A stretch of DNA of 63,280 nucleotides, filler included, from Licmophora abbreviata (GCA_900291995.1; 50 parts of 50 records of this genome joined end to end with filler, not necessarily neighbours in it); one strand, 5' to 3'. Counted from the whole stretch's first letter, positions 3,852 to 42,280 are shown. Numbers and translations: made by a program. The notes: generated by a model from the sequence alone, not told the origin.

Positions 3852-4115
3852 NNNNNNNNNNNNNNNNNNNNNNNNNNNNNNNNNNNNNNNNNNNNTTAAT
3901 TAATTAANNNNNNNNNNNNNNNNNNNNNNNNNNNNNNNNNNNNNNNNNNNNAATGGGTTATATTCCGCTGCCTCCTGGGAGTCCTGTTGCATCGATACGT
4001 GGGTTCGTTTTCGTGGGTGTCGTGTTGTGTTTGGTTGCGATACCGGTGATGTTAGGACAGGGGGCGGCGTCAGGGGAGACTGCGCAAAGATCCGCAGTCC
4101 CCCCCCGCCAGCATC

Positions 4116-5165
4116 CTAGCTGGCGGGCGACTCCGTGTACCATTGCTGGCACCACGCTAACAACGCCGTATCCTCCGCTTCCGTGTAGGTACGGTGGTCA
4201 GCCCGGCGCCGGCAATCGGAGTTACAGATTCCTTTGACGTGGTAGGACAAACAAGCTTCCGAATCGCTGGCTCGGGGGGGTCGGTTAGCTGCTCCGGCCC
4301 TGGCTAAAATCTCGGTGATGCGGACGGGCAATGCGCCGTACACCGCGAATGCGGGATTCAAACTCGGGTTTCGTTCGGGACTGGATCGTGGAACTTCGGT
4401 CCCGGCTGCAGTCCCGCCTGACTGGAAAGTCGGCGGTGCGACCACCGGTCCACTCACGGGAGGCGGAACCGAAGGCGCATCGTAATACCGGCTCGGCAGA
4501 GCGGGCTCCCACGGGGTCTGTAAGCGGATCTCGTGCAACAACCGAACGAACTCCGGTGGCTCCACGTTGGAGTTGGTGGTTGCCTGCTGTGCGAACCACA
4601 GGGACAACCTGAGCTGCACCCAACGTACCGCGAGGGTAGGCAGCGAAACCTGGCTGCGCGGTCGGACGTTGAGCAGGTGGTTCTGACTCGACCCCCAAGC
4701 GCGCCAGAAACGGTCATAAGCCACGACTAGCGGGTGGGTGCCGGACAGTAGAACGTGTAGGGCCACCCGCGTGTTGTTGAAGCAGATGCTACTTTCCGTC
4801 AAGGTCTGGGGGAGCTTGCCGCTCACTGCCGAGTGGTTGAACGACGCCGCCTCCGCAAGGCTGGGCGCTCCTTGACCTTGCTGCATGAGCTGGTACCGCT
4901 CGATGAGTTCGTAAGCGGCGGCCCGCTCTACAGCTGTCTGGTAGCCGAAAGTGAAGCAATGGATCCCTGTAGAAAGGTCCTCGTCGTTCGTCATTTCGAA
5001 TGACAGGTTTCGTAGTTTGGAGGTGATGTCTGGCGTGATAGGGACATCACTCCCCGGCATGCTCAACTGGTCCTGGGCCATCGCATTGAATGCCTGTTGT
5101 AGAACCAGGATGTCCTGCTTCTTGGGGGAGCTCGCTAAGTCTCGCCAGACGGCTGGGAGGGCAGC
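4116..5165 (-). mobile_element. Gag-like ORF of a putative DIRS/Ngaro-type (tyrosine recombinase) retrotransposon
   Basis: C-terminal Cys/His finger CLSYHVKGICNSDCRRRADH after a Pro-rich linker; frame stays open after the TAG. Confidence 0.55.
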
Positions 5166-5265
5166 NNNNNNNNNNNNNNNNNNNNNNNNNNNNNNNNNNN
5201 NNNNNNNNNTTAATTAATTAANNNNNNNNNNNNNNNNNNNNNNNNNNNNNNNNNNNNNNNNNNNN

Positions 5266-6474
5266 CCTAATGAGGTCGTCATCGTCAAGCCACCTCCAAG
5301 TTGTCCTTTGTCGGCTCCGAACACCTACTGGCGGTTGAAGAAGACTCTCAATGGCCTTCGTCGTTCCCCGCATCATTGGTTTAAGTTCATCACCGGTCAC
5401 TTGCGTGCAATGGGATTTGAACCGCTTGCTCACTCACCCTGTATTTACAAGGGCAATCCGATTCCAGGTGGTCCTGTGTTGTATGTTGGCATTTATGTCG
5501 ATGATCTTGCGTATTTTTCCGCAGATCGTCAAGTCGAGGTTGCGTTTGAGTCGGATTTGGCTACCCGTGTCAATGTGGAGTTCATGGGCGATGTCTCTTA
5601 CTTCCTCGGCCAGCACTTCGAATGGAGTCGCCATGAAGATGGGCATATTTCGGTTCACATCTCCCAAGAAGCGTATGCCAACCTCATCGTGGAGGCAATG
5701 GGTCTCACCGATGCTGCCGTCTCCAAGCACATGTCTCCCTACCGCTCAGGTCTTGCGATCGATGCTATCCCACATGTCGATCTCCCGGAACGGGCACGTG
5801 CACCTCTACGTTCTACATATCAGTCCTATGTGGGCATGATTAACTGGTTGGCTATTTGTACCCGACCCGATCTATCTACAGTACAGGCTCTGTTGGCTTC
5901 CTACGCTGCCAACCCCTCCCCTGGCCATCTGGATGCTGCTCGATACGCCGGTCGCTACCTCAAGGGCTCTGCGGACTACGGCATCTCTTTCTCGTCACGA
6001 GCTTCTACTCAGCTTGAGGCGTTCATTGAGTTCCCTCTTGATGGTGCGAATCTGTCTTCGTTCACGGACTCCAACTGGGGCCCACAGGACGCTTCGATTC
6101 CTTCTCCAACTAACTCTCGTCCAGTCTCCAAGAATGAAATGAAATCGGTGTGTGGCCATGTCACGTTCCTCTCTGGCGGTCCGATCCAATGGAAGAGCCA
6201 CAAGGAACTTCGTACGAGTCGGAGTTCAACTGAGGCCGAAGTGAAGACCACGGATGAGGCCACCAAGAGTGTTCAATTCCTTCGTCTAGTCCTTGAAGAT
6301 GCCTCGTTTCCCCAACGGTCACCGACTCCCATCTATAACGATAACCAGGCTGCTGTCGATTGGACCAAGACTACCAGTATGAAAGCTCTCCGATACATCA
6401 ATATTCGGGAGTTCGCTGTCCGCGAAGCTGTTCAGGATCATCAGGAGGTCGTAGTATCCCATATCAAAGGGACC
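5266..6474 (+). mobile_element. Ty1/copia reverse transcriptase-RNase H fragment
   Basis: LKKTLNGLRRSP, YVDDL, TRPDLS, FTDSNW, SSTEAE, IYNDNQAA motifs. Confidence 0.93.
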
Positions 6475-6702
6475 NNNNNNNNNNNNNNNNNNNNNNNNNN
6501 NNNNNNNNNNNNNNNNNNTTAATTAATTAANNNNNNNNNNNNNNNNNNNNNNNNNNNNNNNNNNNNNNNNNNNNCAAGTTGTTGGCAAAACCACGTCTGA
6601 CCATGACGGGAGACGATAGTCCCTGATGACACGCTACGCAATCTATCTCCGCCTGCGCCTTTTCTACTCGAGCTTCCCTGTCTCCCCGACCCCTCATTAA
6701 TA

Positions 6703-7785
6703 ATGTCACAGGCCCGTGTTGTTCCACCATCGTCACTGAGCCGCCCGAAACAGGCATCCTGCAATCCATTGAGGACCATCTCGCTTGTTTTGATGGTCAT
6801 TGTCAGCTGCAACGTCCTGATGGTCAGTCTCTGGCTTCGCAACAGCGAAACACACGAGCCAGTCCCGAAAAGTCTTTCTAGGGAACAAAACTCGTTGTCC
6901 CGGCGCCACGGAATATCGATGGCGAGAAGAGGAGGCATTCCGTCTAACCGTACGATGAGCTCAGCAGTCATTGCATCGAGCGATCCGGTTGTCATTGGCC
7001 ACGTCGTATCCTTGATCAAGTGCAGCAAGACAGCCAGCGTGACAGGCTTTCTCGACGCTGCCGCAGTCTTACGCCATTCTATCCATGAGCAGTCCGTACA
7101 TACTTCCAGATCCAAATACAGCTACCACATGTACGCCATTGTACACAAGGATTGCGAGGTTCATGCCCCCGTCTTGCAACGATGGGGGTACACGCCGCTG
7201 GTGCGAGAGTCGCCCATCACTCCAGACCAAATTCAAGGGGAGTTCTTGCGCACCCATGTGGAGAATGAAAACTGTTGTGGCTCGAAAGAGTTTATCAAAC
7301 TGTATGCCTACGAATTGACGAAACATCCCGTTGTTGTCCATTGGGATCTCGATGTGGCCGTACTGCAACCAATGGACGATCTATTTGACTCAATAATATA
7401 TCCGCATGACAGCGTAGAGGGGCAACGAGCTCGACAAGCGTTGGAGCTTCAACACCCCAATGAACCGTTACCGCAAAAGATCGATGCGTTCTTGACACGC
7501 GACATAACGTCGTCTCGCCCCTGGGAGAAGGTGCAAGGGGTCCAAGGCGGATTCTTGGTTGCGCGTCCCAATCCGCTAGACTTGCAGCTTTATGTCGATA
7601 TTATCAAAGAAGGAAACTTTACACGCGGACGAGGAGAAGGAACTGGCTGGGGAAATTTAGGGTACGGTGGCTTCCAGGGTGCTATGGCGTATCAAGGAAT
7701 CGTGGCGTACTTCTACGACCAATACAAGCCGAACACAGCAGTGGAGCTGAACGTCTGCAGATGGAATCAAGTAGTAGCCGATGTC
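6703..7785 (+). CDS. Type II membrane glycosyltransferase, GT8/glycogenin-like, 3'-truncated
   Basis: N-terminal TM helix; EFIKLYAY...VVHWDLD...MDDLF (DxD motif); QGGFLVARP. Confidence 0.75.
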
Positions 7786-7885
7786 NNNNNNNNNNNNNNN
7801 NNNNNNNNNNNNNNNNNNNNNNNNNNNNNTTAATTAATTAANNNNNNNNNNNNNNNNNNNNNNNNNNNNNNNNNNNNNNNNNNNN

Positions 7886-9088
7886 CAGACCCGACTACAC
7901 GAGATCCCCGCTTCCTGGATCCTTCTCGACAGCCAATCTACCGTCTCGATTTTTCGCAACCGAGACTACCTACACAACATCCGTCCCGCAAGCCGCACCA
8001 TGAAAGTGTATACTAATGGTGGAACACAGGAATCCCATCTCATCGGCGACGTGACCAATTTCGGCCCCGTGTGGTACAATCCCGATTCTCTTGCGAACAT
8101 CCTTTCCCTTGCCGAAGTCCGAAAGCTTTGCCGTGTCGCCATGGACACATCCGTCGAGCCCGCCCTCTGTGTCCACCGTCGCGACGGTTCGATACTCAAG
8201 TTTCAAGAGTATGTGACCGGGCTGTACTTCCACGACGCGTCTAACAAAAATAGCTCCCCCGTTACCCCGTACACATTCTTGTCGACAGTAGCCGCTGAAA
8301 AAGCGCGTTTCACTCCCCGCGAAATTGCAGGAGCGGAAGCAGCCATGGTGTTATACCGGAAAATCGGCCGCCCATCACAGAAAACTTTCCAAGACATCCT
8401 CCAGAAGAATCTGATCACCAACTGTCCTGTCACCATCCAAGATGCCAAGCGTGCCCTAACCATCTATGGCCCAGATGTGGCGACGTTAAAAGGAAAAACT
8501 ACGAAGGGACCGTCAACACACGTCCCAAGCGTCACCGTCTCCCCGCTTCCAAACGATATCCTACAGCATCACGGTGACGTCACCATTTGCGGTGACATTT
8601 TCTACGTACAAGGTATCCCGTTTTTCCACACCATTTCAAGAAAGATCCAATTTCGAACGGTCGCAACCCTGCCAAATCGACAGCAAGCCACTCTACTCCG
8701 CGAAACCCAAGCCATCATTAAACATTACGAAACAAGAGGCTTCAATGTGGCGAATTTCCACACGGACGGAGAATTTGAATGCATTCGGCACAGCATATTG
8801 CCGACGATCCTGAATGTCACCGCCGCAGACGACCATGTTGGCGAAGTGGAACGGTCCATACGGACAATCAAGGAGCGCACTCGGTCTACTATTCATGGAC
8901 TACCGTACAGGCGCCTTCCTGCTTTAATGATCAAAGAAGTCGTCCGACATGCCGTGAAGACCCTGAATCTTTTCCCCGCCAAGAATGGAGTTTCGACGAC
9001 CCTGAGTCCGCGCGCAATCGTTACGGGACTTGCCAACCCCGACTACAACAAGTTACAACTCGAGTTTGGTTCATACGTGCAGGTGTTT
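7886..9088 (+). mobile_element. Diatom CoDi-like Ty1/copia protease-integrase fragment
   Basis: WILLDSQST protease; integrase core CGDIFYV, HTDGEF, HVGEVERSIRTIKER; close paralog of 20802-21977. Confidence 0.9.
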
Positions 9089-9188
9089 NNNNNNNNNNNN
9101 NNNNNNNNNNNNNNNNNNNNNNNNNNNNNNNNTTAATTAATTAANNNNNNNNNNNNNNNNNNNNNNNNNNNNNNNNNNNNNNNNNNNN

Positions 9189-9746
9189 GAAATCACGATC
9201 AACCACGTGAATGTGCAGTGGAGTATCGCCGCACGGGTTATCCTGGACCTCGACACCGAAGTATCGCATCTGGTTCGGGTTGACCAGCGTAACTTCGATC
9301 GCATCTGTCCCATCACCCATCCAGAGTGCTTCGTTAAACACGAGAATATAAGTGATCGACGTGACCGGTGAGGTCCACGCCGATGCCCCTGTTGCAATCC
9401 TCACATCTCTGGTTGGTTCATAACTGTCTTTGTATGGTACCACGTCGCACACTCTGCCGGTGAAGTGCAATGGCACTGAACATCGACCGAGTACCGTCGT
9501 GTCCGCATGAGTATCCAACTCCATGCGTCCATACGTGACTGTTTTCATATCTGCATGAGTCGTCGAGCTCACAGTTCGACCGACTCCAACTCCTGCCAAT
9601 GAGCGTCTGCTCGATGTAGTGAACTCGCCGATACGGCGAAGCTCTCGAGCCACATAACGCTTGTGCCTTACCCGCCCGTAGCCTACCATCCATGAAAGTA
9701 TCGTACTTATCCATGAAACGATCCTTGACCACAGGCGGGGTAGCAG
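9189..9746 (-). mobile_element. Copia (CoDi-like) pol N-terminus, aspartic protease, in frame with upstream gag
   Basis: ELDTHADTTVLG motif, ILVFNEALWMG, TLVNPNQMR; frame open from the codon after the gag TGA. Confidence 0.85.
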
Positions 9747-10391
9747 TCACGCGCTCTTGGACTTCTTCTTTCCGCTCTTCTTCGCCTGACGCCCGCCGAA
9801 TTGGTTTCCTGCGTCGTCGGCAACTGTAGTATCGTCGCTATCCTCGTCGTCTTCGTCAAGACTTTCGTCGGCATCTCGCTTCTTCTTCTTGAAAGCAGAT
9901 ACCGTGCGCTTCATCTTCGCGACTTTCTGCTTCAGCTTCTTCACTGTCCTCGCTGAAGTCTTCGGTGCTGTCTTTTTCCTTCCTCTCCCGCCGTTGGTAT
10001 TCTTGCCCAATCGCTTCCTTTCCTCCTGAACTTTGTCCCTCTCCTCCTGAGATAGGCCTCCCCAGTTCTTGTAGTATCCCGTGTGGATGCTACCGTCCGA
10101 TGCATAGATGCTACCGCCATCTCGGCCATCTTGCAGGTTGCTCGCGACGGCGCCGATACCCCGACTCTTCAAGGTAAGTGTTTCTGGTAGAGTAGAAACT
10201 TCGGCGGCTAACTGGTTGACAGCGGTGGTGTATGTGACGGACTCTGAGTCGACAGCTCGTTGTGCCTTGAGTGCAGCGACTGTTGCAACTAGTCCTGCAT
10301 GTTGGATGCCCTTGGTAAAGAGCCAACGCAACTTGGCATCATCACTGTACTCTTCATCCTCTTCACCGAAGATGGTGAACATCTTCTGGGC
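9747..10391 (-). mobile_element. Copia (CoDi-like) gag C-terminus
   Basis: IHTGYY..W..LS.EE and DAGNQFGGR motifs with Lys-rich tail; directly upstream of the protease. Confidence 0.8.
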
Positions 10392-10491
10392 NNNNNNNNN
10401 NNNNNNNNNNNNNNNNNNNNNNNNNNNNNNNNNNNTTAATTAATTAANNNNNNNNNNNNNNNNNNNNNNNNNNNNNNNNNNNNNNNNNNNN

Positions 10492-11693
10492 TTTCTACAG
10501 TATACAGTCGAAGGCAGACGACACTCAACCCCACGACTTGTTACACGCACTAGGAACCGAGGCTTGAGCCATCTATTCTTTCGACAAGCTGACTCCTCCC
10601 TCGAACATCAAAATCATACTACGACACAAACAACGATGACACCAACCACGCGCCATCCAACATTGAAGCCAGGGATATTCAAGGCATCCACGTCCAAGCT
10701 TATCTCCACAATGCAACCCCGACCTCCCACGACCTTCAAACAACATATCAGGACACTACCAAGTCCCATTGCCAGATGGATACAAAGTTTTGATCTCATC
10801 CACCAAGACCAACTTGAGCAAATTCTACGAGCCAGACAACCTTTACTCTTAGCAACAGACGGGTCCAACTTGTTCCCAAACGCTTCGTTTGCATTTAACC
10901 TTGCCGACACCACAGGCAAGATACTGATCAGGGGCTTTGGCCCCGTGGACGGCGACGCAGCATACATGTCATCACTTAGACCAGAACTCTACGGCATCGG
11001 AAGCGGCTTGACATTTATCGAACAATACTGCAAATTTCATGAAATACCGGCCCACGAACTTCGCATCAAGAACTTATCTGACAGCAAAGCCGCCATACAA
11101 CGATCATCAACAGCAAACTCACAACTTCGAAGTATTTTCGAGCACTTGCATGAATTCCAACGCCCACGAACTACCAGTGTTTCGAAGTTCACGATGCCAG
11201 AAGAGGACGTAGTATGCGAGATACGAGAGACACTGCTCCGAATGCAACCTGATATCACATTTCAGTGGATAAAAAGCCACCAGGACGACTTAACCCCGGC
11301 ACATGCGATGTCAGTTGAAGCCCAACTCAACGTACTGGCTGACCATGATGCTGGACAATACAGGAAATACAATCAGATTGGACACAGAAAGACCCAGCCG
11401 GCTTTACACTTTCCCGGAGCCGTGGTGAATCTTCGCATCTCGCACCGAATCGCAACAACGAAGATTCCGGAGCAAATTCGTCAACACATACGCGGAGAAC
11501 ACTTGGGAACTTACATGCGAGAACGCTACGACTGGTCGGATACAACATGGAACTCCATCGATTGGAAAACTATCGGACAATGCTTCAAAAAGCTCCCGCT
11601 CCACGAACGAGTCAACACTGCGAAAATGATACACGGTTGGAGAAATACAGGAAAGCAACGACGCCGAATAGATCCCACTGCGACCGACCGATG
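10492..11693 (+). mobile_element. Non-LTR retrotransposon (LINE, Ambal-like) RNase H region
   Basis: LATDGS, GPVDG...SSLRPELYG, SDSKAAI, FQWIKSHQD, QLNVLADH, followed by W..IDW zinc-binding region. Confidence 0.8.
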
Positions 11694-11975
11694 NNNNNNN
11701 NNNNNNNNNNNNNNNNNNNNNNNNNNNNNNNNNNNNNTTAATTAATTAANNNNNNNNNNNNNNNNNNNNNNNNNNNNNNNNNNNNNNNNNNNNACGGGCT
11801 TCGACTTGTGCATAATTGAGTCGACTGAGTCAATCTCCGTGCCGCTTACAACGCTGCGATGATGGTACTGTACCATGGTGTTTCTTTTTGTTGCTCTACT
11901 GTAGCCATTTCTTGAAGCCGCTGCCCTTTCTCGGGTCCATGATTGTATTGCAAGTTCGTGTAGATTGACGTAACG

Positions 11976-12988
11976 ATGCATCAATCAATGAATCGATGCA
12001 CTATTTGGATAGTGCTCGCGGCGTGCTCGTTCCTAATCTGGACGCTGGCATCACAAATCTTCGACTTCAAATTCGCCGCTGAGAACAGTACTAAAAATGA
12101 CACCAAGAAGAAGGAGAAGACACAGTCTCAGAAGGCAGCAAGAGCTGAACAGTACGGCATGATGATCCCGAATGTGCTCTTTGTGGGAGCGCAAAAGGCT
12201 GGCACAAGCTTCGCGTCAAAATGGCTGCGAGATTTCCATGAGGATGATATTTGTACCCCCAATCCCGTCCCAGGACCGACGTCAGACCTCGGAGATGTGA
12301 ACCCCTTTGAAGTCCATTTCTTTAACAAAGACGAACGCTTTGGGCAGGGAATTGACTTTTATTCGAACCGTTGGGCGCACTGTGGAAACATTACCTACAG
12401 AATGGATAAAACACCAGGGTACTTGATGCGTGCGGATAGAATTCGGCAATTCTATGATCGGCAAGGCACAGCAGCGGAGCTCAAAATTATCATTTCTTTG
12501 CGAGAACCAGTGGCAAGGGAAATATCTCTTTACAATATGTTAGCAGAGCTTTTCCAGAAAGCCAATCCTGATCCATGGGCAATGAAACTGCTACAGAAGC
12601 CAGGAGGGCGGGGGGAGATGCGGACATTTGAAGAGTACGTCGACAGCAGAAACTTTTCTGCTGCATCGGGATCTATGGAAAAGGGTGGTAAGATGACTGG
12701 CTTCTACGCAGACCGCCTGAAAGAATGGATAAAGGTGTTTGATCGAAAGCAAATACTTGTCCTGTCTTTTGACGAGCTGAAGTCCGACCCCGAAGCGTAG
12801 CTTGGCCGCATCCACGGATTTCTTGATTTAAGAGGAGATGTCAGACTCTTTGAAGAGAAGCCCGACCCGAAGGAAAAGACATGGTCGTACCTGTATCCAC
12901 CATGTTCTGTACAGAAACGACTTTCTATGATGTTTGAACGCTTCAATGCGGATCTTTATGAAATCTTGGCCGACAACCCAGGTCCAGA
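11976..12988 (+). pseudogene. Sulfotransferase (heparan sulfate 3-O/N-sulfotransferase-like) with in-frame TAG at 12798-12800
   Basis: N-terminal anchor; GAQKAGTS 5'-PSB motif, EVHFF, DKTPGY, LREPVAR..S.Y; frame continues past the stop as LGRIHGFL...FERFNADLY. Confidence 0.75.
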
Positions 12989-13548
12989 NNNNNNNNNNNN
13001 NNNNNNNNNNNNNNNNNNNNNNNNNNNNNNNNTTAATTAATTAANNNNNNNNNNNNNNNNNNNNNNNNNNNNNNNNNNNNNNNNNNNNGACGCAACTACG
13101 TCGTGCGGGCGCGTGGGAAGGAGCTCTCGGCTGGCATCAGTCATCGATCCATGCATCGCCGACCTCTCCTCTATCAGTGTAAAGGGTGCCTTACATCGAG
13201 CTGCTCCCCCGAACCGTAGGCACGGAGCATGGATACATAGGTTATATCAAACATCGCCCCGTTCCCATTGAGCGTCCAATATATGTATCCTAGACTAGTC
13301 TAGTATTGGCCTCCGGATGATCTCGCCAAGGTCTGGTCCATCCCATGTTCGAGGTCGCGCACATTACCGAGTCGCCACACGCGCGCGGCGAAGCGAACCA
13401 CATTCACACTGACACAAAGCAGCGGCGACGAGCTGCGAGGCGACACGAATGGGAGTAGCGACTCAACATCTGCCGTTTCTACTGCTTTCGACACCTTCTC
13501 GACTCCTCCTGACACTGCCTAGATCAGAGCTCCATACTACAAAGCCAA

Positions 13549-14282: not shown

Positions 14283-14503
14283 NNNNNNNNNNNNNNNNNN
14301 NNNNNNNNNNNNNNNNNNNNNNNNNNTTAATTAATTAANNNNNNNNNNNNNNNNNNNNNNNNNNNNNNNNNNNNNNNNNNNNCGCGCGTCGAAACGACAA
14401 AAATAGATCCAAACTTTTGGATCCAAAACTACGCATCGAATGAATCATCGCGATTCGATAGAAGAGGAGAGCCACTTGAGTTTCTCCATTCGAGGCGTCT
14501 GCC

Positions 14504-15419
14504 ATGACTTCTGCTCAAGCCCTGCCCAAGATATATACGGTAGATCAGATTACAGCAGTTGTCGAAACAGAAAACTTTGAGAAAAGCCTCATTGCCGCCA
14601 TTCAACAAGGATTCCGTTGCTACTCCCACGGCCGCTTCAATGCGTGTCCTATTCAGACCATGGGCGCTCCACCTATGGCTCCCTTTGTTCAATCCCCAAA
14701 CTACGCCGCTCAGACATGTGTTAAGTCTGGATATCTGACAGGAGCATCTCATTATGTCCTCAAAGTCGCCAGCGGAGGACATCCTCTCCCGAACTCAGGG
14801 CTCATGCAGATCTATTCTCAATGCACCGGAAAGCTCGAACTTAAAGATGTAGAGATGCTACTAAGGATCTCCGTACTTTACTTAACTGATGGCGTGCAGA
14901 CGAGATGTCCAGTCTCGTTAGCACTAAGTCGGAAGTCCCAGGGAGTTAGTTACCCTTAGGAGAGTACAGAAGTCCAGGATTGGTTGACACAATACTGACT
15001 ATCGAAATTATAACAACTAAAGTGAACTACATCTGCACAAACTCCAGACTATTGACTGCGAACTGCCGGAAGCAGATCGGTCACAACGCATGGAACGACC
15101 ACAAGGGAATGAGATAAATAAGGACTTTCCTTGACCCTGTTGGTAACTTCTAACAAATGCTTCCGCTTTGCCAACGGAAGTAAACATTTGCATAAGTGAT
15201 AGGTTCACCCGAAATACTTGAGGGTTCACTCGAAAGACTCGAGGGAATGTGATCATAGGGGGCGTCTTGAGATTTGTGCTAAGTAGATCAAGCATCACAA
15301 GCCGCGCGACGCGTGGACGGAACGCGCACGGACGGAAGAGGACATGTCTGATGGACAGGCAGACTTGACTCACTCTCGAGGCGCTCTTGTTGGACGAAGG
15401 AATCTTGACGGAGCTTCGT
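14504..15419 (+). CDS. Ornithine cyclodeaminase/mu-crystallin family protein, N-terminal part, interrupted at 14839-15379 and again after 15419
   Basis: CVKSGY...VLKVASG...NSGLMQIYSQCTGKLE continues after the insert as ALLLDEGILTELR, matching the OCD motif TG...ALL.D...LT..RTAA. Confidence 0.85.
14839..15374. mobile_element. 536-bp insertion without terminal repeats, flanked by 5-bp direct repeat CTCGA (14834-14838 and 15375-15379)
   Basis: Removing the insert plus one CTCGA restores AAG CTC GAG GCG (KLEA) in the OCD frame. Confidence 0.7.
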
Positions 15420-16960: not shown

Positions 16961-18046
16961 TTTAGTCACCTCCTCAAAGCGATCCTCGAACTGGGCCTCA
17001 TCCAGAGCTCCGTCGACCCCTGTCTCTTCTTTCGACACGATCTCGTCCTCGTCCTATATGTCGACGACGGCGGCATCGCCTCCCGACACTCAGGCATCGC
17101 CGACAAGTTTATCGCCGACCTCAAAGCCAAAGGATTTGACCTCACCAAGGAAGGCAGCTTCGCCGACTTCCTCGGCATCAAATTCACTCAGCAGGATGCC
17201 CACGAGTACAAATTGACGCAGCGCGGCCTGATCGACAAAGTCATCGGAGCTGCCGGCCTCGAGAACTGTAAGCCGAATCTCCTGCCCACTACCCAGCTCG
17301 CCCTCGGCGCTGACGTCGATGGACCCGTGATGAACGAATCCTGGAGCTATCCATCAATCGTCGGCATGCTGCTGTACCTGGCGGGAAATAGCCGCCCAGA
17401 CATCGCCTTCGCTGTCAGCCAGGTCTGCCGATTTACCTCCGCCCCTCGACAGAGTCACGCTACGGCCGTCAAGACCATCATCCGATACCTCGCCGGGACC
17501 CGTGATGAAGGAACCATCATCCGACCGACAGGAAGACTCAACCTCGACTTGTTCGTCGATGCTGATTTCTGCTCACTTCACGGTCGCGAGGATTCGCGTG
17601 ATGTCAACTCTGCGCGCTCGCGCACGGGATACATCATCCTTCTGAGCGGTGTACCCCTACTGTGGAAATCTCAACTCCAGACCCACATTTCCCTTTCTAC
17701 GCTTGAGGCTGAGTATTCGGCTCTATCCTATTCTTTGAAAACACTCATCCCTCTCAAACGCATCCTCCTTGAACTCGTCTCCGCTCTCAGCATCGATCAG
17801 GAAATCAGCTCTTCAGTTCAAGCCCGTGTCTTCGAAGACAATCAAGGAGCACTCACCCTCGCCTCCAACCACCGTGTCACCAACCGCACGAAGTACTTCC
17901 TCGTCAAGTGGCACTGGTTCTGGCAGCACTCCTCCGAATTTCTGCTTCTCAAAGTCGCCTCCGTCGACCAGCGTGCCGATTATCTCACCAAGGGCCTTCC
18001 CCGCGACGGCTTCGAGCACAATCGTCTCCTGGTGCAACGATGGTGA
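16961..18046 (+). mobile_element. Ty1/copia RT-RNase H, C-terminal end of pol
   Basis: DPCLF, LYVDDG, SRPDIAFAV, FVDADF, STLEAEY, FEDNQGA, ADYLTKGL. Confidence 0.93.
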
Positions 18047-22968: not shown

Positions 22969-23044
22969 TGGCAGGGGCAGCAGGGCTCGAACCCGCGACC
23001 TACGGTTTTGGAGACCGTCGCTCTACCAGCTGAGCTATACCCCT
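22969..23044 (-). tRNA. tRNA-Trp (CCA), bacterial
   Basis: AGGGGTATAGCTCAGCTGGTAGAGCGACGGTCTCCAAAACCGTAGGTCGCGGGTTCGAGCCCTGCTGCCCCTGCCA: 76-nt cloverleaf with encoded CCA end. Confidence 0.96.
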
Positions 23045-32185: not shown

Positions 32186-32285
32186 NNNNNNNNNNNNNNN
32201 NNNNNNNNNNNNNNNNNNNNNNNNNNNNNTTAATTAATTAANNNNNNNNNNNNNNNNNNNNNNNNNNNNNNNNNNNNNNNNNNNN

Positions 32286-33454
32286 ACGAACAACATGGAT
32301 ATGACCTCAGAGGCGACAGAACCCGGAGTTACCAGCATCGGTACTCTCACCAGTTGGACGGACAAGCTGAGACAGGATCCACCGCCACGGGCGTACAACT
32401 GCTCCAGAACGCGATTCATGAATTACCTAGCGACCCGCGACCCCTCCGTACCCACGTTTTCGGCCAAGTTTTCACTCAGATGACAGCGAGTGCCGGTATC
32501 AAGAAGCACGGGCAAGGCGCAGTCGACGCGCTATTCAAAGAATTTGCACAGCTTGATGACAAGGAAGTGTTTGAGCCCATGGATGCGACGGTATTATCAC
32601 CCACCGAGAAGAACGGCGCTTTGAGAGCAGTGAACCTGATAAAAGAAAAGCGCTCCGGGAAACTTAAAGGACGCACGTGTGCCGATGGCCGACCACAGCG
32701 CAGCCTGTACACTCGAGCGGAGACCACATCACCTACCATCTCCACCGATGCTCTCATGATCTCCCTCATGATCGACGGCCTAGAACGTCGTGACGTGGCA
32801 ACAGCAGATGTCGTTGGAGCATATTTGCATGCCGAAATGGAAGATTTTGTACTCATGCGCCTTACCGGAGATGCAGTCAACATCATTTGTGACGTGAATC
32901 CAAAGTACGTACCATTCGTGACCACGGAGAACGGAAAGCGAGTACTCTACGTTCGACTATTAAAGGCCCTGTATGGATGTGTGAAGTCCGCCCTTCTCTG
33001 GTACGACCTTTTCGTGAATACTCTGAAAGATCGCGGTTTCGTGATCAACCCCTACGACCCATGTGTGGCGAATTGCATGATAAATGGCAAACAATGCACA
33101 ATCGGATGGTACGTAGACGATAACAAGATTTCGCACGTTGACCCGGCCGTTGTGACCGAGATCATCGATCTGATTGAGTCGAAATTTGGAAAAATGACGG
33201 TAACTCGCGGTAAACAACACACGTTCCTGGGTATGGAGATCACCCTAAATGACGATGCAACAGTTACCATCACAATGAAAGACTACATTCGCGAGGCGAT
33301 TGTGGATTTTGGAGAAGACGTGTCCAGGGCAGTCGCTACACCCGCAGGGAAGGACCTTTTCGAGATCGATGACAGTGCCGTGGCGTTGGAAAAGGCCAGG
33401 AGCGAGCTTTTCCATAGCATCGTGGCGAAACTACTCTATGTGTCCCAGCGAGGA
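32286..33454 (+). mobile_element. CoDi-like Ty1/copia reverse transcriptase fragment
   Basis: KEKRSG.LKGR.CADG, DVVGAYL, LLKALYG, NPYDPC, WYVDDNK. Confidence 0.93.
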
Positions 33455-33554
33455 NNNNNNNNNNNNNNNNNNNNNNNNNNNNNNNNNNNNNNNNNNNNTT
33501 AATTAATTAANNNNNNNNNNNNNNNNNNNNNNNNNNNNNNNNNNNNNNNNNNNN

Positions 33555-33811
33555 AAAAGTTTGACCGCACGAAACCGCATGTGAACATCGGCACGATTGG
33601 TCACGTTGACCACGGCAAGACGACACTGACGGCGGCGATCACGAAGTATTTCGGCGATTTTCGGGCATATGACCAGATTGACGGCGCGCCCGAAGAAAAG
33701 GCCCGCGGGATCACGATCTCGACCGCGCATGTGGAATACGAGACGGACGCGCGCCACTATGCGCATGTGGACTGCCCCGGCCACGCGGACTATGTGAAGA
33801 ACATGATCACC

Positions 33812-33848
<37 letters not shown>

Positions 33849-34519
33849 ACGCGGCCGATGGCCCGATGCCGCAGACGCGCGAGCACATCCTGCTGGGTCG
33901 TCAGGTCGGCATTCCGTACATGGTCGTCTACATGAACAAGGTCGACCAGGTCGATGACGAGGAACTGCTGGAACTGGTGGAAATGGAAATCCGCGAGCTT
34001 CTGACCTCGTATGACTACCCGGGCGACGATATTCCCGTGATCAAGGGCTCGGCGCTGGCGGCGATGGAAGGCCGCGATCCCGAGATCGGCGAGAACTCGA
34101 TCCGCGCGCTGCTGGCGGCTGTGGACGAGTATATCCCGACGCCGGAGCGCGCCGTGGACAAGCCGTTCCTGATGCCGATCGAAGACGTGTTCTCGATTTC
34201 GGGCCGTGGTACGGTTGTGACCGGCCGTGTCGAGCGTGGCGTTGTGAATGTGGGCGACGAGCTTGAGATCGTCGGCATCAAGGCGACGCAGAAGACGACC
34301 TGCACGGGCGTCGAGATGTTCCGCAAGCTGCTGGATCGCGGTGAGGCTGGCGACAACATCGGCGCGCTGCTGCGCGGTATCGACCGTGAGGCGGTCGAGC
34401 GTGGTCAGGTTCTGTGCAAGCCGGGTTCGGTGAAGCCGCACACGAAGTTCGAGGCCGAGGCGTATATCCTGACCAAGGAAGAGGGTGGCCGTCACACGCC
34501 GTTCTTCGCCAACTACCGT

Positions 34520-34555
<36 letters not shown>

Positions 34556-34572
34556 ACGGTCGAGCTTCCTGC

Positions 34573-34603
<31 letters not shown>

Positions 34604-34720
34604 CTGAAGTTCACCGTCGAGCTGATCGCACCGATCGCCATGGAAGACGGCCTGCGCTTCGCGATCCGCGAAGGTGGCCGTACCGTCGGCGCCGGCGTCG
34701 TGTCCAAAATCCTCGAGTGA
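33555..34720 (+). CDS. tuf: Elongation factor Tu, alphaproteobacterial (Rhodobacteraceae-like), first few codons missing
   Basis: [45 protein letters not shown]; short AAITKYFG form typical of Rhodobacterales/Rhizobiales; GC-rich codons. Confidence 0.98.
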
Positions 34721-34822
34721 TCNNNNNNNNNNNNNNNNNNNNNNNNNNNNNNNNNNNNNNNNNNNNTTAATTAATTAANNNNNNNNNNNNNNNNNNNNNN
34801 NNNNNNNNNNNNNNNNNNNNNN

Positions 34823-35985
34823 GCAAGTTTCGTATCCTCCTCGTTGGAGTCGACGACCTTTGTTTCACCCTTCTCGGCCACTTTCCAGATCACAAACTCC
34901 TCCACCGTTGGTAGGAAAACACTAGCGCTGAGCTTCAGCTTGGAAGGGACGCTCAGATGGTCAGCAGTGAGTTCCTTGTCAGTGCCCTTTTCGAAGTAGT
35001 GACGGCGGTCGTCGAAGTGAACGCTCGTTGGAAAGCGGAGCAGAATCTTCCTTTTCAAACGTGCTGGGTCAGCTTTCTTGAGCTTATCCTTGTTAGAAAC
35101 GATGGATTCTTCCAAAACCTTGGCATAAAGCTCGCTTCCCTTGAGTGCTTTGATGAGACCAGATGTGTTGCGCCTGAAGGAATCTGTGACAGCTGGAATT
35201 TCGATAAGGATCTCGTTGGTGGATGACGTCAAAGAAGCCTTGAGCTTGATTTTTTTAGATTTAAAGTCATGCAGGTTGATGCCACTTAAAAAGATGGCAT
35301 AGCCATTGTGGACATAGCTTCCAGCCTTCGCGTCACGAAAGGGCAAAACCGTGATCTCGCCATAGTCGTTCTTCTTCGTTGGGTCGACTTGAACGACGGT
35401 AGTTGTGACTACTGATGAAGTAGATCAATAGCGATAGGGATATAGAAAATATGAGTGCATTTGAAATGATGAATGTGATGTGATGATTGGACGCCACACG
35501 TCGCGAAGTGAGCATTGTTCAAGAAGCCTTACCATCATCAACATCGAGGATGTCATCGTCATAGTCGCGTGCTCCGGAGCGGCGGCGAGTCGGGACGAGG
35601 CTCATGGTGGTACTGGTAGTAGTCGTGTTCGACGATCGGAGGATGCCTGCTGGCGACGACGTGGTTGAAGGGGTCGTAGTAGTAGTAGACGCAATCTCCG
35701 GCGGAGAAGATGGTTGCGGCGACTGCGGCGACGGGATGGAAGGAGCCACTCCTGCTCTAGGTTTTGTGGGCTCGAGATATCCAACTGAAGCTGCTGGATG
35801 GACACGAAAGGAAGCAAGAAGTCTCAAGTAGTTGGTTTCGTCTTCTGTCTTCAAAGCGTTGACTTTGTTGCGAATTCGCCTGCGAGTTACAGAACCAGGG
35901 GCACCGTAAATGTCTGGGCGATTATCGCAGAGACTCTTGAGGTTAAAAGTTGGTCCGAATCGTGGCTCTCCGAAGGGTACAGCAG
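34823..35985 (-). CDS. Two-exon hypothetical diatom protein (intron 35409-35532), possibly transposon-associated
   Basis: LCDNRPDIYG..GS..RR N-domain, Ser/Thr/Pro linker, GTAAGG...TAG intron joins in frame to the ORF at 35346. Confidence 0.55.
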
Positions 35986-36085
35986 NNNNNNNNNNNNNNN
36001 NNNNNNNNNNNNNNNNNNNNNNNNNNNNNTTAATTAATTAANNNNNNNNNNNNNNNNNNNNNNNNNNNNNNNNNNNNNNNNNNNN

Positions 36086-37089
36086 TGGAAGCGGATCCGA
36101 ACCATGTGCGCAAACGTCAGCAGATAGCCCAAATTCGGTATCAGTTGAGGTCGAGTCGCGTACTGCCGTCGTAGCTGCTGCACATCGGCCTGGATCAGGT
36201 CCTCCGTCTGAGTGGGCATGTTAGCATGAAGCAACGCATCCATTTCCAGCTCACTCAGATCCTCGGGCGCATCAAGCTCATCAAAGAAGCATGCCTTGCC
36301 CACCAGCTCGTGTTCCTGACAATACTTGTACCACGTTTCATTGACAAAGATGGAGGGCGCGTCGCTGAAACGAATCGGAAGCGGAACCTCTTGCATCCAG
36401 GACTGCCATGCTGATATCGAAGCATATTGCAATCCTTTGCCGACTGGCGCTTGCGGCCATGATTGGTCGAACTCTTGAAAGACACTGGCATGCTTCATAG
36501 CCTTTCGTGTCAATATGCCCATCGCAACCGACTGTCGGGAGGCACGTGGAGTAGACGGGAGACATCGGATGGAATCCAGGCAATCAACCGACAGTAACTC
36601 GCAGGTACAGTTGGCACCTGTGTGAATCGTAAGAGAGCCGCGTTTTTGATCAGTAGCACCATTGGATTCGTGGTGTGACAGAGTTAATTGTCGCGCCACG
36701 TTGGGATCTTCAAGCGTGGGAGATTCGTCACGTAGCTCCTCTTGATGGTCGGGGGCAACGGTGTCAGTCGGGAATGCGATGCGCAGGAAGGAATCTTTGT
36801 CGGAGTGAGTACCAAGAGAAGCAAAGAGAAAGATGAGGAACATGGTAGGATGCAAACGCGTCGTACTCGTACAGAAGCCCGACATGTGACCGAGGAACAT
36901 GAAATAAAGGGCGTTAAATTATTCAGACTTCAATTTACCTGGCGCGGAGGATACGGATAAATTGGTCCCAAGAAATATTTCATGAAGAGACAGAAGAACT
37001 GCCAGAATCACAACAAATACCACTGGGATAGTGGCAAAGGACTTCCGAACTCCAGGGTAGTATGTGCGTTGACGTTGAGGAGACGTCAT
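36086..37089 (-). CDS. Type II membrane protein (possible Golgi glycan-modifying enzyme) with an intron starting at 36938
   Basis: Short basic N-terminus plus TM helix, GTAAAT donor, long downstream ORF. Confidence 0.45.
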
Positions 37090-37345
37090 GTGGAAGTATA
37101 GGGGGGCGAATTGCACAAATCAAACGCCTTTTCGAAGAGAAAGAACGCTCCCGCTGTCTATTACACTTGATTAGTTGTTCGCCGATGAAGCGTAGCCACG
37201 GACCCTCGATCCGTGAACAAACTAGCGCCGCACCGCGGAGTCACANNNNNNNNNNNNNNNNNNNNNNNNNNNNNNNNNNNNNNNNNNNNTTAATTAATTA
37301 ANNNNNNNNNNNNNNNNNNNNNNNNNNNNNNNNNNNNNNNNNNNN

Positions 37346-38105
37346 TGCCTTCAAAGTCAGTCGGATCTTCGCGGTAGGTGATGGTGAACTTGAGATGGTT
37401 GTAAAGGAAGTACTCGTCGTTCTTGAGTCCCGTGTAGGAGGGAGGAGCCTTGAAGCCGACCGGGTATCCGCGGACAGCGTAGTTGAGTTCCTTACTCCTC
37501 ATGAGCACGGGCAGCTGATCGAGAGTCATGTGGACACGATACTGGCGTTCGACAAGCTGGCGCATCCAACGGAGTTTCTTTCCACCGATGTTGACCTGGC
37601 AGAGCGGTTTGCAGCCGCGGTCTTGCTTGACGTTGAGCAGAAAGGGCGCCGGCTTGAGCTCGTGACCCTGGAGACGACTTCCGAGGTTCTTGCGCAGTTT
37701 CTGCTTACGCGAGAGCGTGAGCTCGGGAGGAGGGCAAAAGGGGAGGTCGTAGAACTCGAACGGGACCTGCGTCTTTTTGGAATTGATGGTCTCGGTAAAC
37801 ATGAAGATCTCGGAACTGATAGTGTACTCCGTGGGCGAGACTCCAGGAAAGAGAACGGCGGCCAAGCTAGCTTGCTTCTTCCGCAAGAGTCCCTTGCGCT
37901 TCTTCTTGCGGAGGTGATAATTCCGCATCGCAGCAGCTTCTTCCGTGTGGCTGACCTCGTCCACGCCAGAGTTGCGGAGTTCAATGTACTTGGCCTGCTC
38001 CTGCTTGGAGGCCTGAACTCGCTCCTTGCGCGACAAGCCTTTCGCGGAGGCACTGCTCACAGCGCAGGCAAGCAGCAGTGCCAAGACGTAACGTGACGTG
38101 GTCAT
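37346..38105 (-). CDS. Transmembrane 9 superfamily (TM9SF/EMP70) protein, N-terminal lumenal part
   Basis: Signal peptide; FPGVSP..Y, SKKTQVPFEFYDLPFC, NLG..L.G, LDQLP, GYPVG, YNHLKFTI.Y. Confidence 0.93.
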
Positions 38106-38606
38106 CGTGGTGGGTTCAGAATGGCGGAAGCAGCGGCAGTGGCGAGGATGAGGCGAGTCGGGGACATTATCTGTGGGACGATGCGGGGGATACCATTGTC
38201 CTAGTGGGTTGACGGAACGGCGGCAGTACCATGTTCTACGCATTTTCTACGTCCTGGCATGACAACATCATTGTTGAGATGAGCGTAGGGTCATTTTGAA
38301 ATTTTGAAACTTTGATCGGCACTGTGGAGAAGTATCGAAACTCCAGATTCCAAGTTCCATGCACAGAGAGACGCGATGAGTGAAAATGTGAAAAGGGAAA
38401 CCCTATACAGCCCCCCAGTCGACGTCAGCAGTCTGTCTGCCAGTAGGTCTCGTGTTCATCGCTCGTCTCTCTTGGCGCGCCATATTTTCGAAACAAGCGC
38501 GAGTTCNNNNNNNNNNNNNNNNNNNNNNNNNNNNNNNNNNNNNNNNNNNNTTAATTAATTAANNNNNNNNNNNNNNNNNNNNNNNNNNNNNNNNNNNNNN
38601 NNNNNN

Positions 38607-39765
38607 CATCGGTGGTGGTAGACAGCGGGTCAACTCATCACATGGTGCCTCATCGGCGTGAGTTCCGCGAGTATACAAATTTTCCGGCTGGGTCACACCA
38701 TGTGAACCTAGCCGATAACGGTGGTACGTTGCCAGTATGCGGTATTGGTACTTGGGTTTTCAGTTCTGGATCTCGACTCATCCAAGTCAACGATGCTCTT
38801 CACGTTCCTGGTCTACGTTCTCCTTTATTTTCGGTTCGTAAACATCGCCGTCAACCTGGATGCTCATTCATCGCTGACAATTCAAATTGTATCTTGACAT
38901 TTCCTACCTTCATTTTGGATGTCGATGATTCTACTGACTGTCTCCTACCAACTGAATGTGTGACATCTCCAACTTCAATTCCCCTACATGAGTTTGATTA
39001 TGTGGATGTATCATCGACGACTCCATCCGCGAACACGTTCCCAACGCCTTCGCAAGCTCCGGACTCTACAGTTCCAAACTTCCATCCCACGACTCCTGCC
39101 ATGTCTTCCAAAATGGTCACCGGTTCTATCTCCGGCCCCCAAATGGAGACCAGAGCGGCTCGCCGTCGTAGAATGTTGAATTCCCCACCTCCCCCGGTCG
39201 ATTCGACTACGGGTTCCACTTCTATTGAGGAATCTCAGTCGCCGATGCATGATGAGTCGATGTCGCCGATGGATAACTCGTCGCCTTCCAATAGCAGACT
39301 TACGCCTATGCCATATTACCGACCATCCTCGACGACGACCGCACACCGTCGCCTTACGGGTCAACAACTCCATCAATACTTGGGTTTTCGCACCCTGAAG
39401 CAGTGGTCGAGCCTTGAGGAAACGGGTAGTGGTTCGGTACATGTTATTTCTGGGGGGGAGTCTCCATTGGAACTTGGCAAGGTGGCCAACAAGACGAAAG
39501 ATAGTCGTAATACGACTGCCGTACCACGTCCCACCGAATTTTTGGATGTTGTCCATATGGACATTGGCTACGGTGACGTTACTGCAATTGGCGGTGTCCG
39601 ATACACGTTGATGTTTGTCGATCGTGCAACAAGGTATTTTTTCTTCTACGGAATGAAGCACCTGACACAAACATGTATCATCACGGCGTTCGAACAATTC
39701 CAAACGGAACTTGCGGGTCGTCTCCCAACAACTATCTACACGGACTTTGACCCAAAATTGCTTTC
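38607..39765 (+). mobile_element. Ty1/copia protease-integrase fragment
   Basis: VVDSGSTHHM protease, LHVPGL..PLFSV, VVHMDI, FVDRATRY, IYTDFD. Confidence 0.88.
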
Positions 39766-39865
39766 NNNNNNNNNNNNNNNNNNNNNNNNNNNNNNNNNNN
39801 NNNNNNNNNTTAATTAATTAANNNNNNNNNNNNNNNNNNNNNNNNNNNNNNNNNNNNNNNNNNNN

Positions 39866-41020
39866 GGTCGCCTGCGCTACGACCGTGGCGACGGAGCTGC
39901 GAAAGGCTATCGCCACGGGCACCGCGAACGGCAGCTCACCGGCACCTTCGGGACGGAAACAGTGCGGGTGCCGCGGGCCCGGATCGAGGATGACGCTGGC
40001 AAGGTGACGGAATGGCGCTCGAAAGCGCTGCCCCGTTACCAGCGGTTGACCAAAAAGGCCGAAGCCTTGATCGCCGCAGTCTATCTTTCCGGCACCAATA
40101 CCCGGCGCGTCAAGCGGGCGCTGTTCGGGCTGTTCGAGGGCGCCGTCAGCAAGGACGTGGTCAGCCGTGCCTGGCGCAAGGTGAAAGTCGACTGGGACGC
40201 GTGGTGCGCCCGCAGCCTCGCCGATGAGGACATCATTCGCATCATTCTCGATGGCACCGTGATCAAGACCCGCATCGACAAGAAGGCCACGAACATCTCA
40301 GTGCTGGCCGCCATCGGCGTGCGGCGCGACGGTCAGAAGGTGCTGCTTTCCATAAGAAACATGGGCGGCGAGAGCACCGCTGCATGGCGGCAGTTCCTCG
40401 ATGATCTTGATGCCCGAGGCTTGAAACGGCCCGAATTTGTGATTGTCGATGGCGCTCCGGGGCTGGAGGCCGCGCTCGTGGGGTTGTGGGGCGAGGATCT
40501 GCCGATCCAACGCTGCACGGTTCACAAACACCGCAACCTTCTGGCCCATGCCCCGAAGCACATGCATGACGAGCTGACCGAAGACTACCGGGACATGATC
40601 TATGCCGACACCGCGGCCGAGATCGATAAGCGGCGCAGGGCGTTCCTGCGCAAGTGGCGCCTGAAGTGCCGGGCCGTCGCCGATAGCCTGGAGGAAGCGG
40701 GGGACCGGCTCTTCACATTCACCCGCCTCGATCCAACGCAATGGAAATCCGCCAGGACCACCAACGCCATTGAGCGCCTCAACGAGGAGTTCCGCCGCCG
40801 TATCAAGACCCAGACCGTGTTGCCCTGCGCCGAGACCGTGCCGATGCTGCTATGGGCGCTGCTCGCCTCCGGTCAGATCCAGATGCGAAAGGTCGACGGC
40901 TGGGAAACCCTCTCTCAGCCCCTCGAACCCATGCCCCTTGACCTCGCAGCCTAAAACACCGACCCTTCACATGCCCGGAGCGCGCCGCCAGGGAATTTCC
41001 ACAGCATTCGCGACACGACC
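39866..41020 (+). mobile_element. IS256-family insertion sequence (transposase to 40954 plus right end), alphaproteobacterial
   Basis: GYRHG.R.R, ILDGT, VDGAPGL, QRCTVH, RTTNAIERLNEEFRRR; ends in ...CACAGCATTCGCGACACGACC, an IS256-type terminal repeat. Confidence 0.93.
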
Positions 41021-41123
41021 CGGNNNNNNNNNNNNNNNNNNNNNNNNNNNNNNNNNNNNNNNNNNNNTTAATTAATTAANNNNNNNNNNNNNNNNNNNNN
41101 NNNNNNNNNNNNNNNNNNNNNNN

Positions 41124-41396
41124 CGTTTCTCCCGTGTCTGGGTCATCGTAAGCAATCGCCGCACTGACCGTTCGTAATGCTGTGGCAACATGGGCTCCAG
41201 GGTCGTAGCCAGTGACATTCACTGGTCGGTCAAAATCGTGTAGCACAAGGGAGTGCTTGCCCACGACACAACAGTCTGCGTGGGAGTCAAGGTCAGTAAA
41301 TGTATCAACATTGCCGGCATGGCGTTTTACGACCCCCACACTTATCCTGCTGACAATCGGCTGTACTGTCACCGCTGACACAACAGCCGGAGTCAG
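41124..41396 (-). mobile_element. Copia (CoDi-like) pol N-terminus, aspartic protease, in frame with gag
   Basis: DLDSHADCCVVG, V.V..YDP, SAAIAYDDP.TGET. Confidence 0.85.
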
Positions 41397-42280
41397 TCAG
41401 GACTTTTTCACCTTCTGCCGCGTAAGGGCAGGGTTCGAGCGGTTGCTCGTGACCTCGGTGGCCGCATCAGGCGACACCGAGTCGTCATCATCATCGTCGG
41501 TCGACAGCTTGTCCAGCTTGGACGTCAACGCTGCGACTCGGCGGGACAGAGTTTTAAAGTCACTCTTGCCCGTCTTCCTCCTCTTCCCTCCTCCATTATC
41601 ATCACCGTGCTTCTTCTTTCCTCCTCGTTTGCCCCTCTTGAGTCTCAAGGCATCCTTCTGCTCACGAGAGAGTTCGGCATATTCCTTAGCCGTGTAGTAT
41701 CGGTCTTCAACTTGAGCACTTCCCTTGTCGGTCGCAACCGACGATACATTCAAGCTTGTCGTTTCGGTCGCTCGGGTCTGCTTGATGAAGTCTTGATACA
41801 AAGTGACGCAGCCCTGGAAGTCTACTCTCAAGGCCGCATCCGACATGATACGGGTCTTCACAGAGTCCAGAGTCGGCGTCTTGATCCCAGCCAACAAATG
41901 CCTGACTTTCGATCGCGGGTCGATCCCGGCATAGCCATACTCAGTGAGGCCTTCGAGGATCGCGTGCTGGTCAACGTGAGTCTTCACGTACTTTTCAAAG
42001 TTCCAGCGGCGCCTCTCACCGGTGTATACCGTCTTCTCCAATTTCGTTTCCGCCGCAGAGGCCATGTTATCGACGTTGTTCGCACCCAGGAAGTGGTCGT
42101 ACAATCCAAAGAAGGCCGCCCTGCCGTCGCGTGTACGCTGCGCCGGCTTCACATAAGTCCAGCAGTCCAAGTCTCGCGTCATCTGCGCGATGACCTCGTA
42201 CACCTTCTGGGAGTCAGCCCTGTAGGTCTGTCCCTCATGAGGGGCCCTCCTGACCATCTCTTCGGCAACGGTCGGGTATT
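41397..42280 (-). mobile_element. Copia (CoDi-like) gag C-terminus
   Basis: RDGRAAF..L..HFLG, Y.GE.RRWNFEKY...H, KVR.LL.GI, DRYY...EY..LS, NRSNPALTRQ motifs. Confidence 0.85.

Follow-up and report, generated by a model that had tools for sequence, protein, structure and literature searches.

The stretch of DNA considered here, hereafter the window, comprises 63,280 nucleotides (nt) of the Licmophora abbreviata assembly (GCA_900291995.1) and is made up of about 50 contigs, each of 1.1-1.2 kb, joined by runs of N and sorted by length. Our subject is the junction between gag and pol of Ty1/copia retrotransposons as it appears on two of these contigs, together with a site on a third that had been grouped with them. 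The three sites, which lie on three separate contigs of about 1.2 kb each, here called A, B and C, and are all read from the minus strand, had been singled out in an earlier note on the same sequence, and its description of them holds good: each presents a single stop codon beyond which the same frame remains open, followed at a distance of 7 nt in B and C and of 6 nt in A by a hairpin, and the three stems differ in sequence (Table 1). In B a stretch of 93 nt folds at -37.2 kcal/mol (z -3.69, equalled by none of 200 shuffles), the 13-bp stem closing an inner region of 43 nt; in C a stretch of 63 nt folds at -26.8 kcal/mol (z -3.10, matched by 2 of 200 dinucleotide shuffles); and in A a stretch of 60 nt, with the stem starting 6 nt past the stop, folds at -39.0 kcal/mol (z -4.99, 0 of 200 shuffles). 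The hairpins lie beyond chance expectation, well so for A and B and moderately for C.

Table 1. Features of the three stop-codon sites, in coordinates of the window
Feature	Position	Strand	Remarks
Contig B	9189-10391	(-)	copia gag/pol junction fragment
B gag, C-terminal 214 codons, ending ...AGNQFGGRQAKKSGKKKSKSA	9750-10391	(-)	translation; motif AG(D/N)xFGG(K/R) and Lys-rich tail common to 66 metagenome relatives
B in-frame UGA, then CUG	9747-9749	(-)	homologous TGA in 71/77 evaluable relatives; unchanged in a 94.5%-identical relative
B 7-nt spacer CUGCUAC	9740-9746	(-)	7 nt, the most frequent offset of the longest helix over 63 unique junctions
B extended stem-loop	9671-9739	(-)	13-bp closing stem (9727-9739 pairs with 9671-9683), encloses a further hairpin
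B pol start in gag frame	9189-9746	(-)	76-codon linker, then ELDTHADT motif region (expected protease site)
Contig C	41124-42280	(-)	copia gag/pol junction fragment
C gag, C-terminal 293 codons	41400-42278	(-)	40-53% identity to gag-pol proteins
C in-frame UGA, then CUG	41397-41399	(-)	junction crossed in a single frame in alignments to distant relatives
C 7-nt spacer CUGACUC	41390-41396	(-)	precedes the hairpin
C hairpin: 7 bp, internal loop, 5 bp	41358-41389	(-)	z -3.10, 2/200 shuffles
C pol start in gag frame, DLDSHADC motif	41124-41396	(-)	45-63% identity to N-termini of pol-only open reading frames of 737-1408 residues
Contig A	3952-5165	(-)	separate contig, UAG site
A protein, C-terminal 349 codons	4119-5165	(-)	conserved family; C-x8-C-x3-C-x5-H motif near the end
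A UAG stop, then G	4116-4118	(-)	normal family end; no listed relative extends beyond
A GC-rich hairpin, 6 nt past the stop	4066-4109	(-)	-39.0 kcal/mol, z -4.99

On contig B the gag frame stays open beyond the UGA for 186 codons, that is, up to the contig end, with numerous stops in each of the other two; on contig C it is open for 91 codons, the other frames being closed. Unbroken helices starting 4-13 nt after a codon were scored at 15004 control positions, taken from all contigs and both strands of the window, and a helix equal to that of B, placed at this distance, is found at 0.25% of them. A copy of B at 94.5% identity, present in two public runs, keeps both the TGA and the spacer, and where the 5' arm of its stem differs, at two positions, pairing is retained at both. 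Among public sequencing runs no RNA run was listed as containing the sequence, the best-matching run sharing 0.27 of its words.

The part of B that follows the stop shares 40-55% identity with the typed 130-residue N-terminal parts of 11 relatives of about 1400 amino acids (aa). The relatives of B, which are metagenome proteins without source names, are mostly pol open reading frames (ORFs) of 1305-1442 aa beginning 10-70 residues before an ELDSHADT motif, and the domain family RVT_2 (PF07727) is carried by 24 of the 25 that were found. Some of the gag-pol proteins to which C is related over gag and the start of pol, at 40-53% identity, are source-named Nitzschia or Fragilaria, a more distant relative (28% identity) is source-named Fistulifera, and the long relatives of C likewise carry RVT_2. 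Pfam searches on six window fragments, A, B and C included, gave nothing meaningful, and B and C have no Pfam family of their own. In two of the metagenome loci described below (L025 and L066) the ORF right after the TGA runs for about 870-890 codons into RVT_2; in these loci no integrase family reached threshold, and L084 gave one weak DDE_3 match. This placement of RVT_2 within pol would be consistent with protease and integrase lying ahead of it. Because the relatives carry RVT_2, and because C, over gag and the pol start, can be aligned with the B-like loci through their junctions without a change of frame, B and C are assigned on sequence grounds to a single broad group of Ty1/copia elements of diatom type. 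The motif at the expected protease site (9450-9480 and 41265-41290, both on the minus strand, and loci L001-L092) reads D-S/T-H-A-D across the family; the canonical retropepsin motif is D-S/T-G-A. Four more copia fragments lie in the window (5266-6474, 16961-18043 and, on the plus strand, 32288-33454 and 38609-39763), RVT_2 being present on three of them and a Pol beta-barrel domain on one, and none overlaps a gag-pol junction.

The conservation of the junction was followed in two collections. A metagenome scan, its query being B aligned with the N-terminal ends of pol from eleven relatives, returned 485 relatives; the 80 best were retained, and 77 of them were evaluable. These B-like loci, which carry L numbers, are diverged, at 30-57% protein identity. 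The genome_contigs collection contributed 12 more distant loci, situated in mis-binned genome bins, of which 10 cover a junction, and the two collections pooled give 63 unique junctions. Scans of viral_contigs with B, C and the family of A returned zero relatives. Many of the source contigs behind L004-L077 measure 6.4-6.9 kb, which suggests full-length elements of about that size, assembled singly.

Going upstream from the pol motif, the first stop encountered in frame is TGA in 71 of the 77 evaluable metagenome loci, and a sense codon occupies the position of the junction stop in 0 of the loci evaluated. The remaining six have TAA: L046, L047, L069, L078 and L079 are visibly damaged or frameshifted upstream, and in L030 gag ends in frame and intact, the TAA being a second stop further downstream. 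Of the 77 loci, 66 have three features in a common frame, namely the gag C-terminal motif (AG-D/N-x-FGG-K/R with its Lys-rich tail), a single TGA and the pol N-terminus, and 37 of these 66 possess a gag ORF of at least 300 codons. All 10 junction-covering loci from genome_contigs have the in-frame TGA, followed by C in nine. The linker between the TGA and the pol motif, of 33-89 codons, is open in frame 0 in 58 of 58 unique cases, as compared with four in frame +1 and three in frame +2. Over the 63 unique junctions the stop is followed by C in 53, by A in eight, by T in two and by G in none, the codon after the stop being CTN in 40 and CGG or CGC in seven. A family-wide conservation of the stop and its context, which the earlier note had proposed to look for, is thus borne out at the metagenome loci (TGA) and the pooled junctions (C next) alike.

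A stem downstream of the stop belongs to the same conserved anatomy, specific in its position and co-varying in its pairs. An unbroken helix with a score of at least 8, starting 4-13 nt past the stop, is present at 22 of 48 unique junctions, whereas among 10546 control positions from the loci themselves it occurs at 4.7%; with the threshold raised to 10, it is seen at 10 of 48 junctions and at 0.4% of controls (Mann-Whitney p 6e-14). When the start of the longest helix was scanned over offsets 0-40 (41 offsets), it peaked at exactly 7 nt, with 15 of the 63 unique junctions, and offsets 7-12 accounted for 33 of the 63. For 20 junctions preselected by a fixed rule, which took the unique junctions in order and kept the first 20 whose gag ORF reached 300 codons, comparison with dinucleotide shuffles gave a negative z at 19, z of -2 or lower at 11, and at eight a fold matched by 0 of 200 shuffles. 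The covariation is clearest in an 11-member subfamily (alignment A4), where a 15-bp stem begins 8 nt past the UGA: 83.4% of the cells are paired, against 25-47% when the stem is slid along the alignment, both sides have changed in 11 of the 15 pairs, and the covariation score of 0.461 compares with at most 0.19 for slid stems and is reached by 0 of 500 shuffles. The covariation that the earlier note had suggested checking is therefore found in this subfamily, with 11 of 15 pairs doubly changed; in a second subfamily it is weak, as detailed below.

We read B and C as Ty1/copia gag-pol junctions bearing a structure-stimulated UGA readthrough signal, since their layout matches the alphavirus signal of UGA-C, spacer and stem, and we would put the probability of this reading at roughly 0.72. 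What we infer is both that the UGA is read through and that the stem stimulates its readthrough. On this proposal gag would end at a UGA followed by CUG, a 7-nt spacer and a stem-loop, with pol carrying on in the gag frame; the majority of ribosomes would terminate at the UGA and release Gag, while a minority, of a few per cent, would decode it with a near-cognate tRNA and go on to make Gag-Pol. The stem would be situated at the mRNA entry channel of the ribosome while the UGA occupies the A site, and would in this way raise the frequency of readthrough. Frameshifting was considered for B and C and rejected, as pol lies in the zero frame. Of the earlier note's proposal that structure-stimulated readthrough operates at all three sites, the part concerning B and C is accordingly the one retained, given their UGA, the C that follows, the spacer of about 7 nt and the conserved, co-varying stem; for A, which offers no retroelement domain, no pol and no fused relative, it is unsupported.

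The closest layouts are viral. In alphaviruses UGA-CUA or UGA-CGG, with a 7-9-nt spacer and a stem of at least 10-12 bp, raises readthrough 3- to 14-fold (PMC3159437), and a layout of UGA-C with an extended stem-loop has been predicted in several plant-virus genera (PMC3159437; Firth et al. 2011). With the signals of alphaviruses and of tobra-, peclu-, furo- and pomoviruses, as set out there, the diatom elements have in common the UGA, the C at +4 (CUN or CGG) and the 7-9-nt spacer; in both, a stem of some 8-15 bp closes off a large interior that is less well conserved, and relatives differ by compensatory substitutions. They differ from these viral signals in that the carrier is a protist retrotransposon, the product is Gag-Pol rather than an extended replicase or coat protein, and the spans are shorter, at about 40-100 nt.

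Among retroelements, readthrough of a stop between gag and pol is established for murine leukaemia virus (MuLV) and has been inferred for several long terminal repeat (LTR) retrotransposons (PMC2194720, PMC10085805). The premise that copia elements do without readthrough is too strong: in Tca2 (pCal), a Ty1/copia element of Candida albicans, gag and pol are reported in one frame, separated by a UGA that is followed, after a spacer of about 8 nt, by an RNA structure described as a pseudoknot (PMC2194720). Tca2 thus shares with B and C the superfamily, the one-frame gag-UGA-pol arrangement, the spacer and the presence of RNA structure; as portrayed in PMC2194720, it has a purine-rich spacer and a predicted pseudoknot, whereas in B and C the stop precedes a CUN codon and the structure is a long stem-loop, and the B and C elements constitute a large, diverged clade with comparative support. 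In another superfamily, the Ty3/gypsy elements Tj1, Tosmo1-3 and Tcry1 of fission yeasts possess a conserved GAA-TGA-CT(A/G) between gag and pol, the stop being essential for the transposition of Tj1 (PMC10085805). The in-frame TGA followed by CT(A/G) is as in B and C; in the fission-yeast elements the preceding GAA is conserved and no downstream structure is mentioned in the portion of PMC10085805 drawn on here, whereas in the diatom elements the preceding codons vary. The CoDi copia elements of Phaeodactylum and Thalassiosira, diatom Ty1/copia elements like B and C, have a separate ORF1 and ORF2 (Maumus et al. 2009, PMC2806351), and the main text of that paper discusses no readthrough signal.

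Several observations weigh against readthrough at these junctions, or against the generality of the signal. The junctions compared are related sequences and not independent samples. Over 100 nt, plain folding energy at the junctions is only modestly below that of other windows taken from the loci concerned (median z -0.42, with 19% of junctions in the lowest 5%), and the position-specific helix measure and the shuffle z-scores were adopted after this modest enrichment in plain minimum free energy had been seen. The alignment of the second subfamily, of the CGG type, is partly misaligned and provides six pairs, of which two show double changes, which is weak. By the contiguous-helix measure C itself is unremarkable, a helix as good as its 7-bp one occurring at 16.5% of the window controls. 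In L081, the closest DNA relative of C (48% identity), the gag TGA is present and the pol motif is read in frame +1; the region concerned (2164-2330) represents either a damaged copy or a different mode of recoding. Among the relatives there are also fused gag-pol proteins that lack the stop (P0014, P0020, P0026-P0030 and P0042), and the stop is hence not universal in the wider clade, although some of these fused proteins may be gene models that skip a stop. Finally, the UGA of Tca2 with its flank and pseudoknot gave no readthrough in Saccharomyces cerevisiae, and this was the only bench-tested copia precedent found (PMC2194720).

That last result bears equally on an alternative which we consider unlikely, namely that pol is expressed by means other than readthrough, be it an internal promoter or initiation site, termination followed by reinitiation, or splicing, the stem then serving packaging, dimerisation or pausing. 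The Tca2 junction, besides failing to support readthrough in yeast, held a minor promoter (PMC2194720). In the diatom-type loci gene callers place the start of many pol ORFs at a Met that lies a few codons past the stop, and in a subfamily with UGA-AUG-AUA-GGC an AUG directly follows the stop (L002:960, L003:2101, L006:1985 and L058:37), an arrangement which at these four unique junctions could also permit termination-reinitiation. Expression of this kind needs no shared frame, and yet gag and pol lie in one frame with exactly one stop between them in 66 of 77 loci, the linker is open in frame 0 and almost never in the other two (58 of 58 against 4 and 3), the conserved junction stop is always UGA with C next in 53 of 63, and the stem is tied to it by a fixed spacer. 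UGA is described as the leakiest of the stops (PMC10085805).

Far less credible are two readings in which no regulated stop would be involved. Were the stops inactivating mutations in dead copies and the hairpins accidental, one might point to the 17 loci with extra stops or frameshifts further up in gag, to the six with TAA near pol and to the shortness of the window contigs, but a TGA at the same place in 71 of 77 relatives, the positional and covariation signals, and protein identities of 30-57%, which exclude near-identical copies of one dead element, leave this explanation scarcely tenable. Equally hard to sustain is the notion that UGA is a sense codon or encodes selenocysteine in the host, gag-pol being a single ORF: all conserved junction stops are indeed UGA, but each element has exactly one in-frame TGA, with a gag ORF as long as 542 codons on one side and, on the other, a pol ORF followed for as many as 1005 codons with no further TGA, and an Rfam scan of the whole window found nothing at the junctions and no family resembling the selenocysteine insertion sequence (SECIS).

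Contig A requires a different account. The earlier note had taken its protein for the gag of a DIRS-like element, with UAG-G readthrough into pol aided by the hairpin, here at +7, and had supposed that structure-stimulated readthrough might have arisen independently in two retroelement orders. The features that invite such a reading are real: the UAG is followed by G, the spacer is 6 nt, the hairpin past the stop is genuine and strong (z -4.99), a helix as good as its own being found at 0.19% of the 15004 window control positions, and frame 0 stays open over the 54 codons that remain on the contig. The openness of frame 0 nevertheless says little here, because frame +2 is likewise open, for 51 codons. 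In MuLV, the established case, gag-UAG-G is followed by an 8-nt spacer and a pseudoknot (PMC3159437, PMC2194720), and contig A resembles it, as there described, only in the UAG-G and in a structure about 7 nt downstream; it differs in having no pol in view and in belonging to a protein family that ends at the stop.

This family comprises 786 representatives at 50% clustering; its members stand alone, at 640-810 aa and typically 650-700 aa, and the best 150 of the 786 all end where A ends. When relatives were sought at 612-2000 aa, ten were found, all of 644-708 aa and none fused to anything, and the 54 residues downstream of the stop gave no match in the searches for relatives of A. A Pfam scan revealed no reverse transcriptase, RNase H, tyrosine recombinase or pol on the 1.2-kb contig, and no Pfam family at all on the contig or among the family members; the Atlas holds the family as unnamed clusters only, and in five metagenome-assembled genomes that contain copia contigs it has zero members. 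The alignment-based structural model is confident (pLDDT 88.7) and mostly helical, but its comparison by Foldseek with PDB and BFVD gave zero matches at E of 0.001 or lower, and VIA-align gave generic helical bundles with a best Z of 5.7, with no convincing match to a capsid or any other fold. The conserved cysteine-histidine motif near the C-terminus is C-x8-C-x3-C-x5-H and not CCHC. As far as can be told, then, the UAG of A is the ordinary C-terminus of a conserved protein family, and A stands outside the copia readthrough system. With no retroelement domain, pol, fused relative or gag-like fold to be found for A, the claim of two orders is unsupported, and we judge a DIRS-like gag with UAG readthrough to be quite improbable. 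More improbable still is the joint proposition that the copia clade bears an alphavirus-like signal and that the UAG-G and hairpin of A form an independent recoding site in an undescribed mobile element.

As regards B and C, the strategy as such is known, gag-UGA-pol having been described in other LTR retrotransposons, and what appears to be new is a well-supported case in a diatom-type copia clade, as judged from comparative evidence. Full-text literature searches found no earlier description of gag-pol readthrough in diatoms, the per-element CoDi tables lying outside their coverage. A large and old copia clade, with at least 485 relatives and distributed over diatoms and related marine and freshwater protists, is likely to set its Gag:Pol ratio by UGA-C, a 7-nt spacer and a stem-loop. 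The full signature, consisting of UGA, C, fixed spacer and co-varying stem, is displayed by the clade as a whole, and if the reading is true, a single readthrough stimulator would exist in hundreds of natural, co-varying versions. The probable hosts belong to algae that dominate ocean primary production, and stress has been reported to activate copia elements in diatoms (PMC2806351). If the proposal is confirmed, annotators would gain a rule for joining ORF1 and ORF2 of diatom copia elements, recoding research would acquire a natural series of stem variants, and the engineering of diatoms a ready-made leaky-stop cassette.

The remaining contigs of the window are of mixed character, with a guanine-plus-cytosine (GC) content spanning 0.40 to 0.67 and with eukaryotic and bacterial-looking sequences side by side. 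The eukaryotic genes include those for a protein kinase, EMP70 and Rap-GAP, in addition to copia-type reverse transcriptase fragments; among the bacterial-looking ones are EF-Tu (33557-34717, 63% GC), an IS256-type transposase (39866-40951), an alginate lyase (52356-53486) and CBM6 (59724-60842). The assembly is probably not derived from a pure culture. A group II intron maturase domain is encoded at 2864-3679 on the minus strand of a contig of 40% GC, possibly organellar, and a tRNA gene at 22972-23044, also on the minus strand, is the sole Rfam match of the window.

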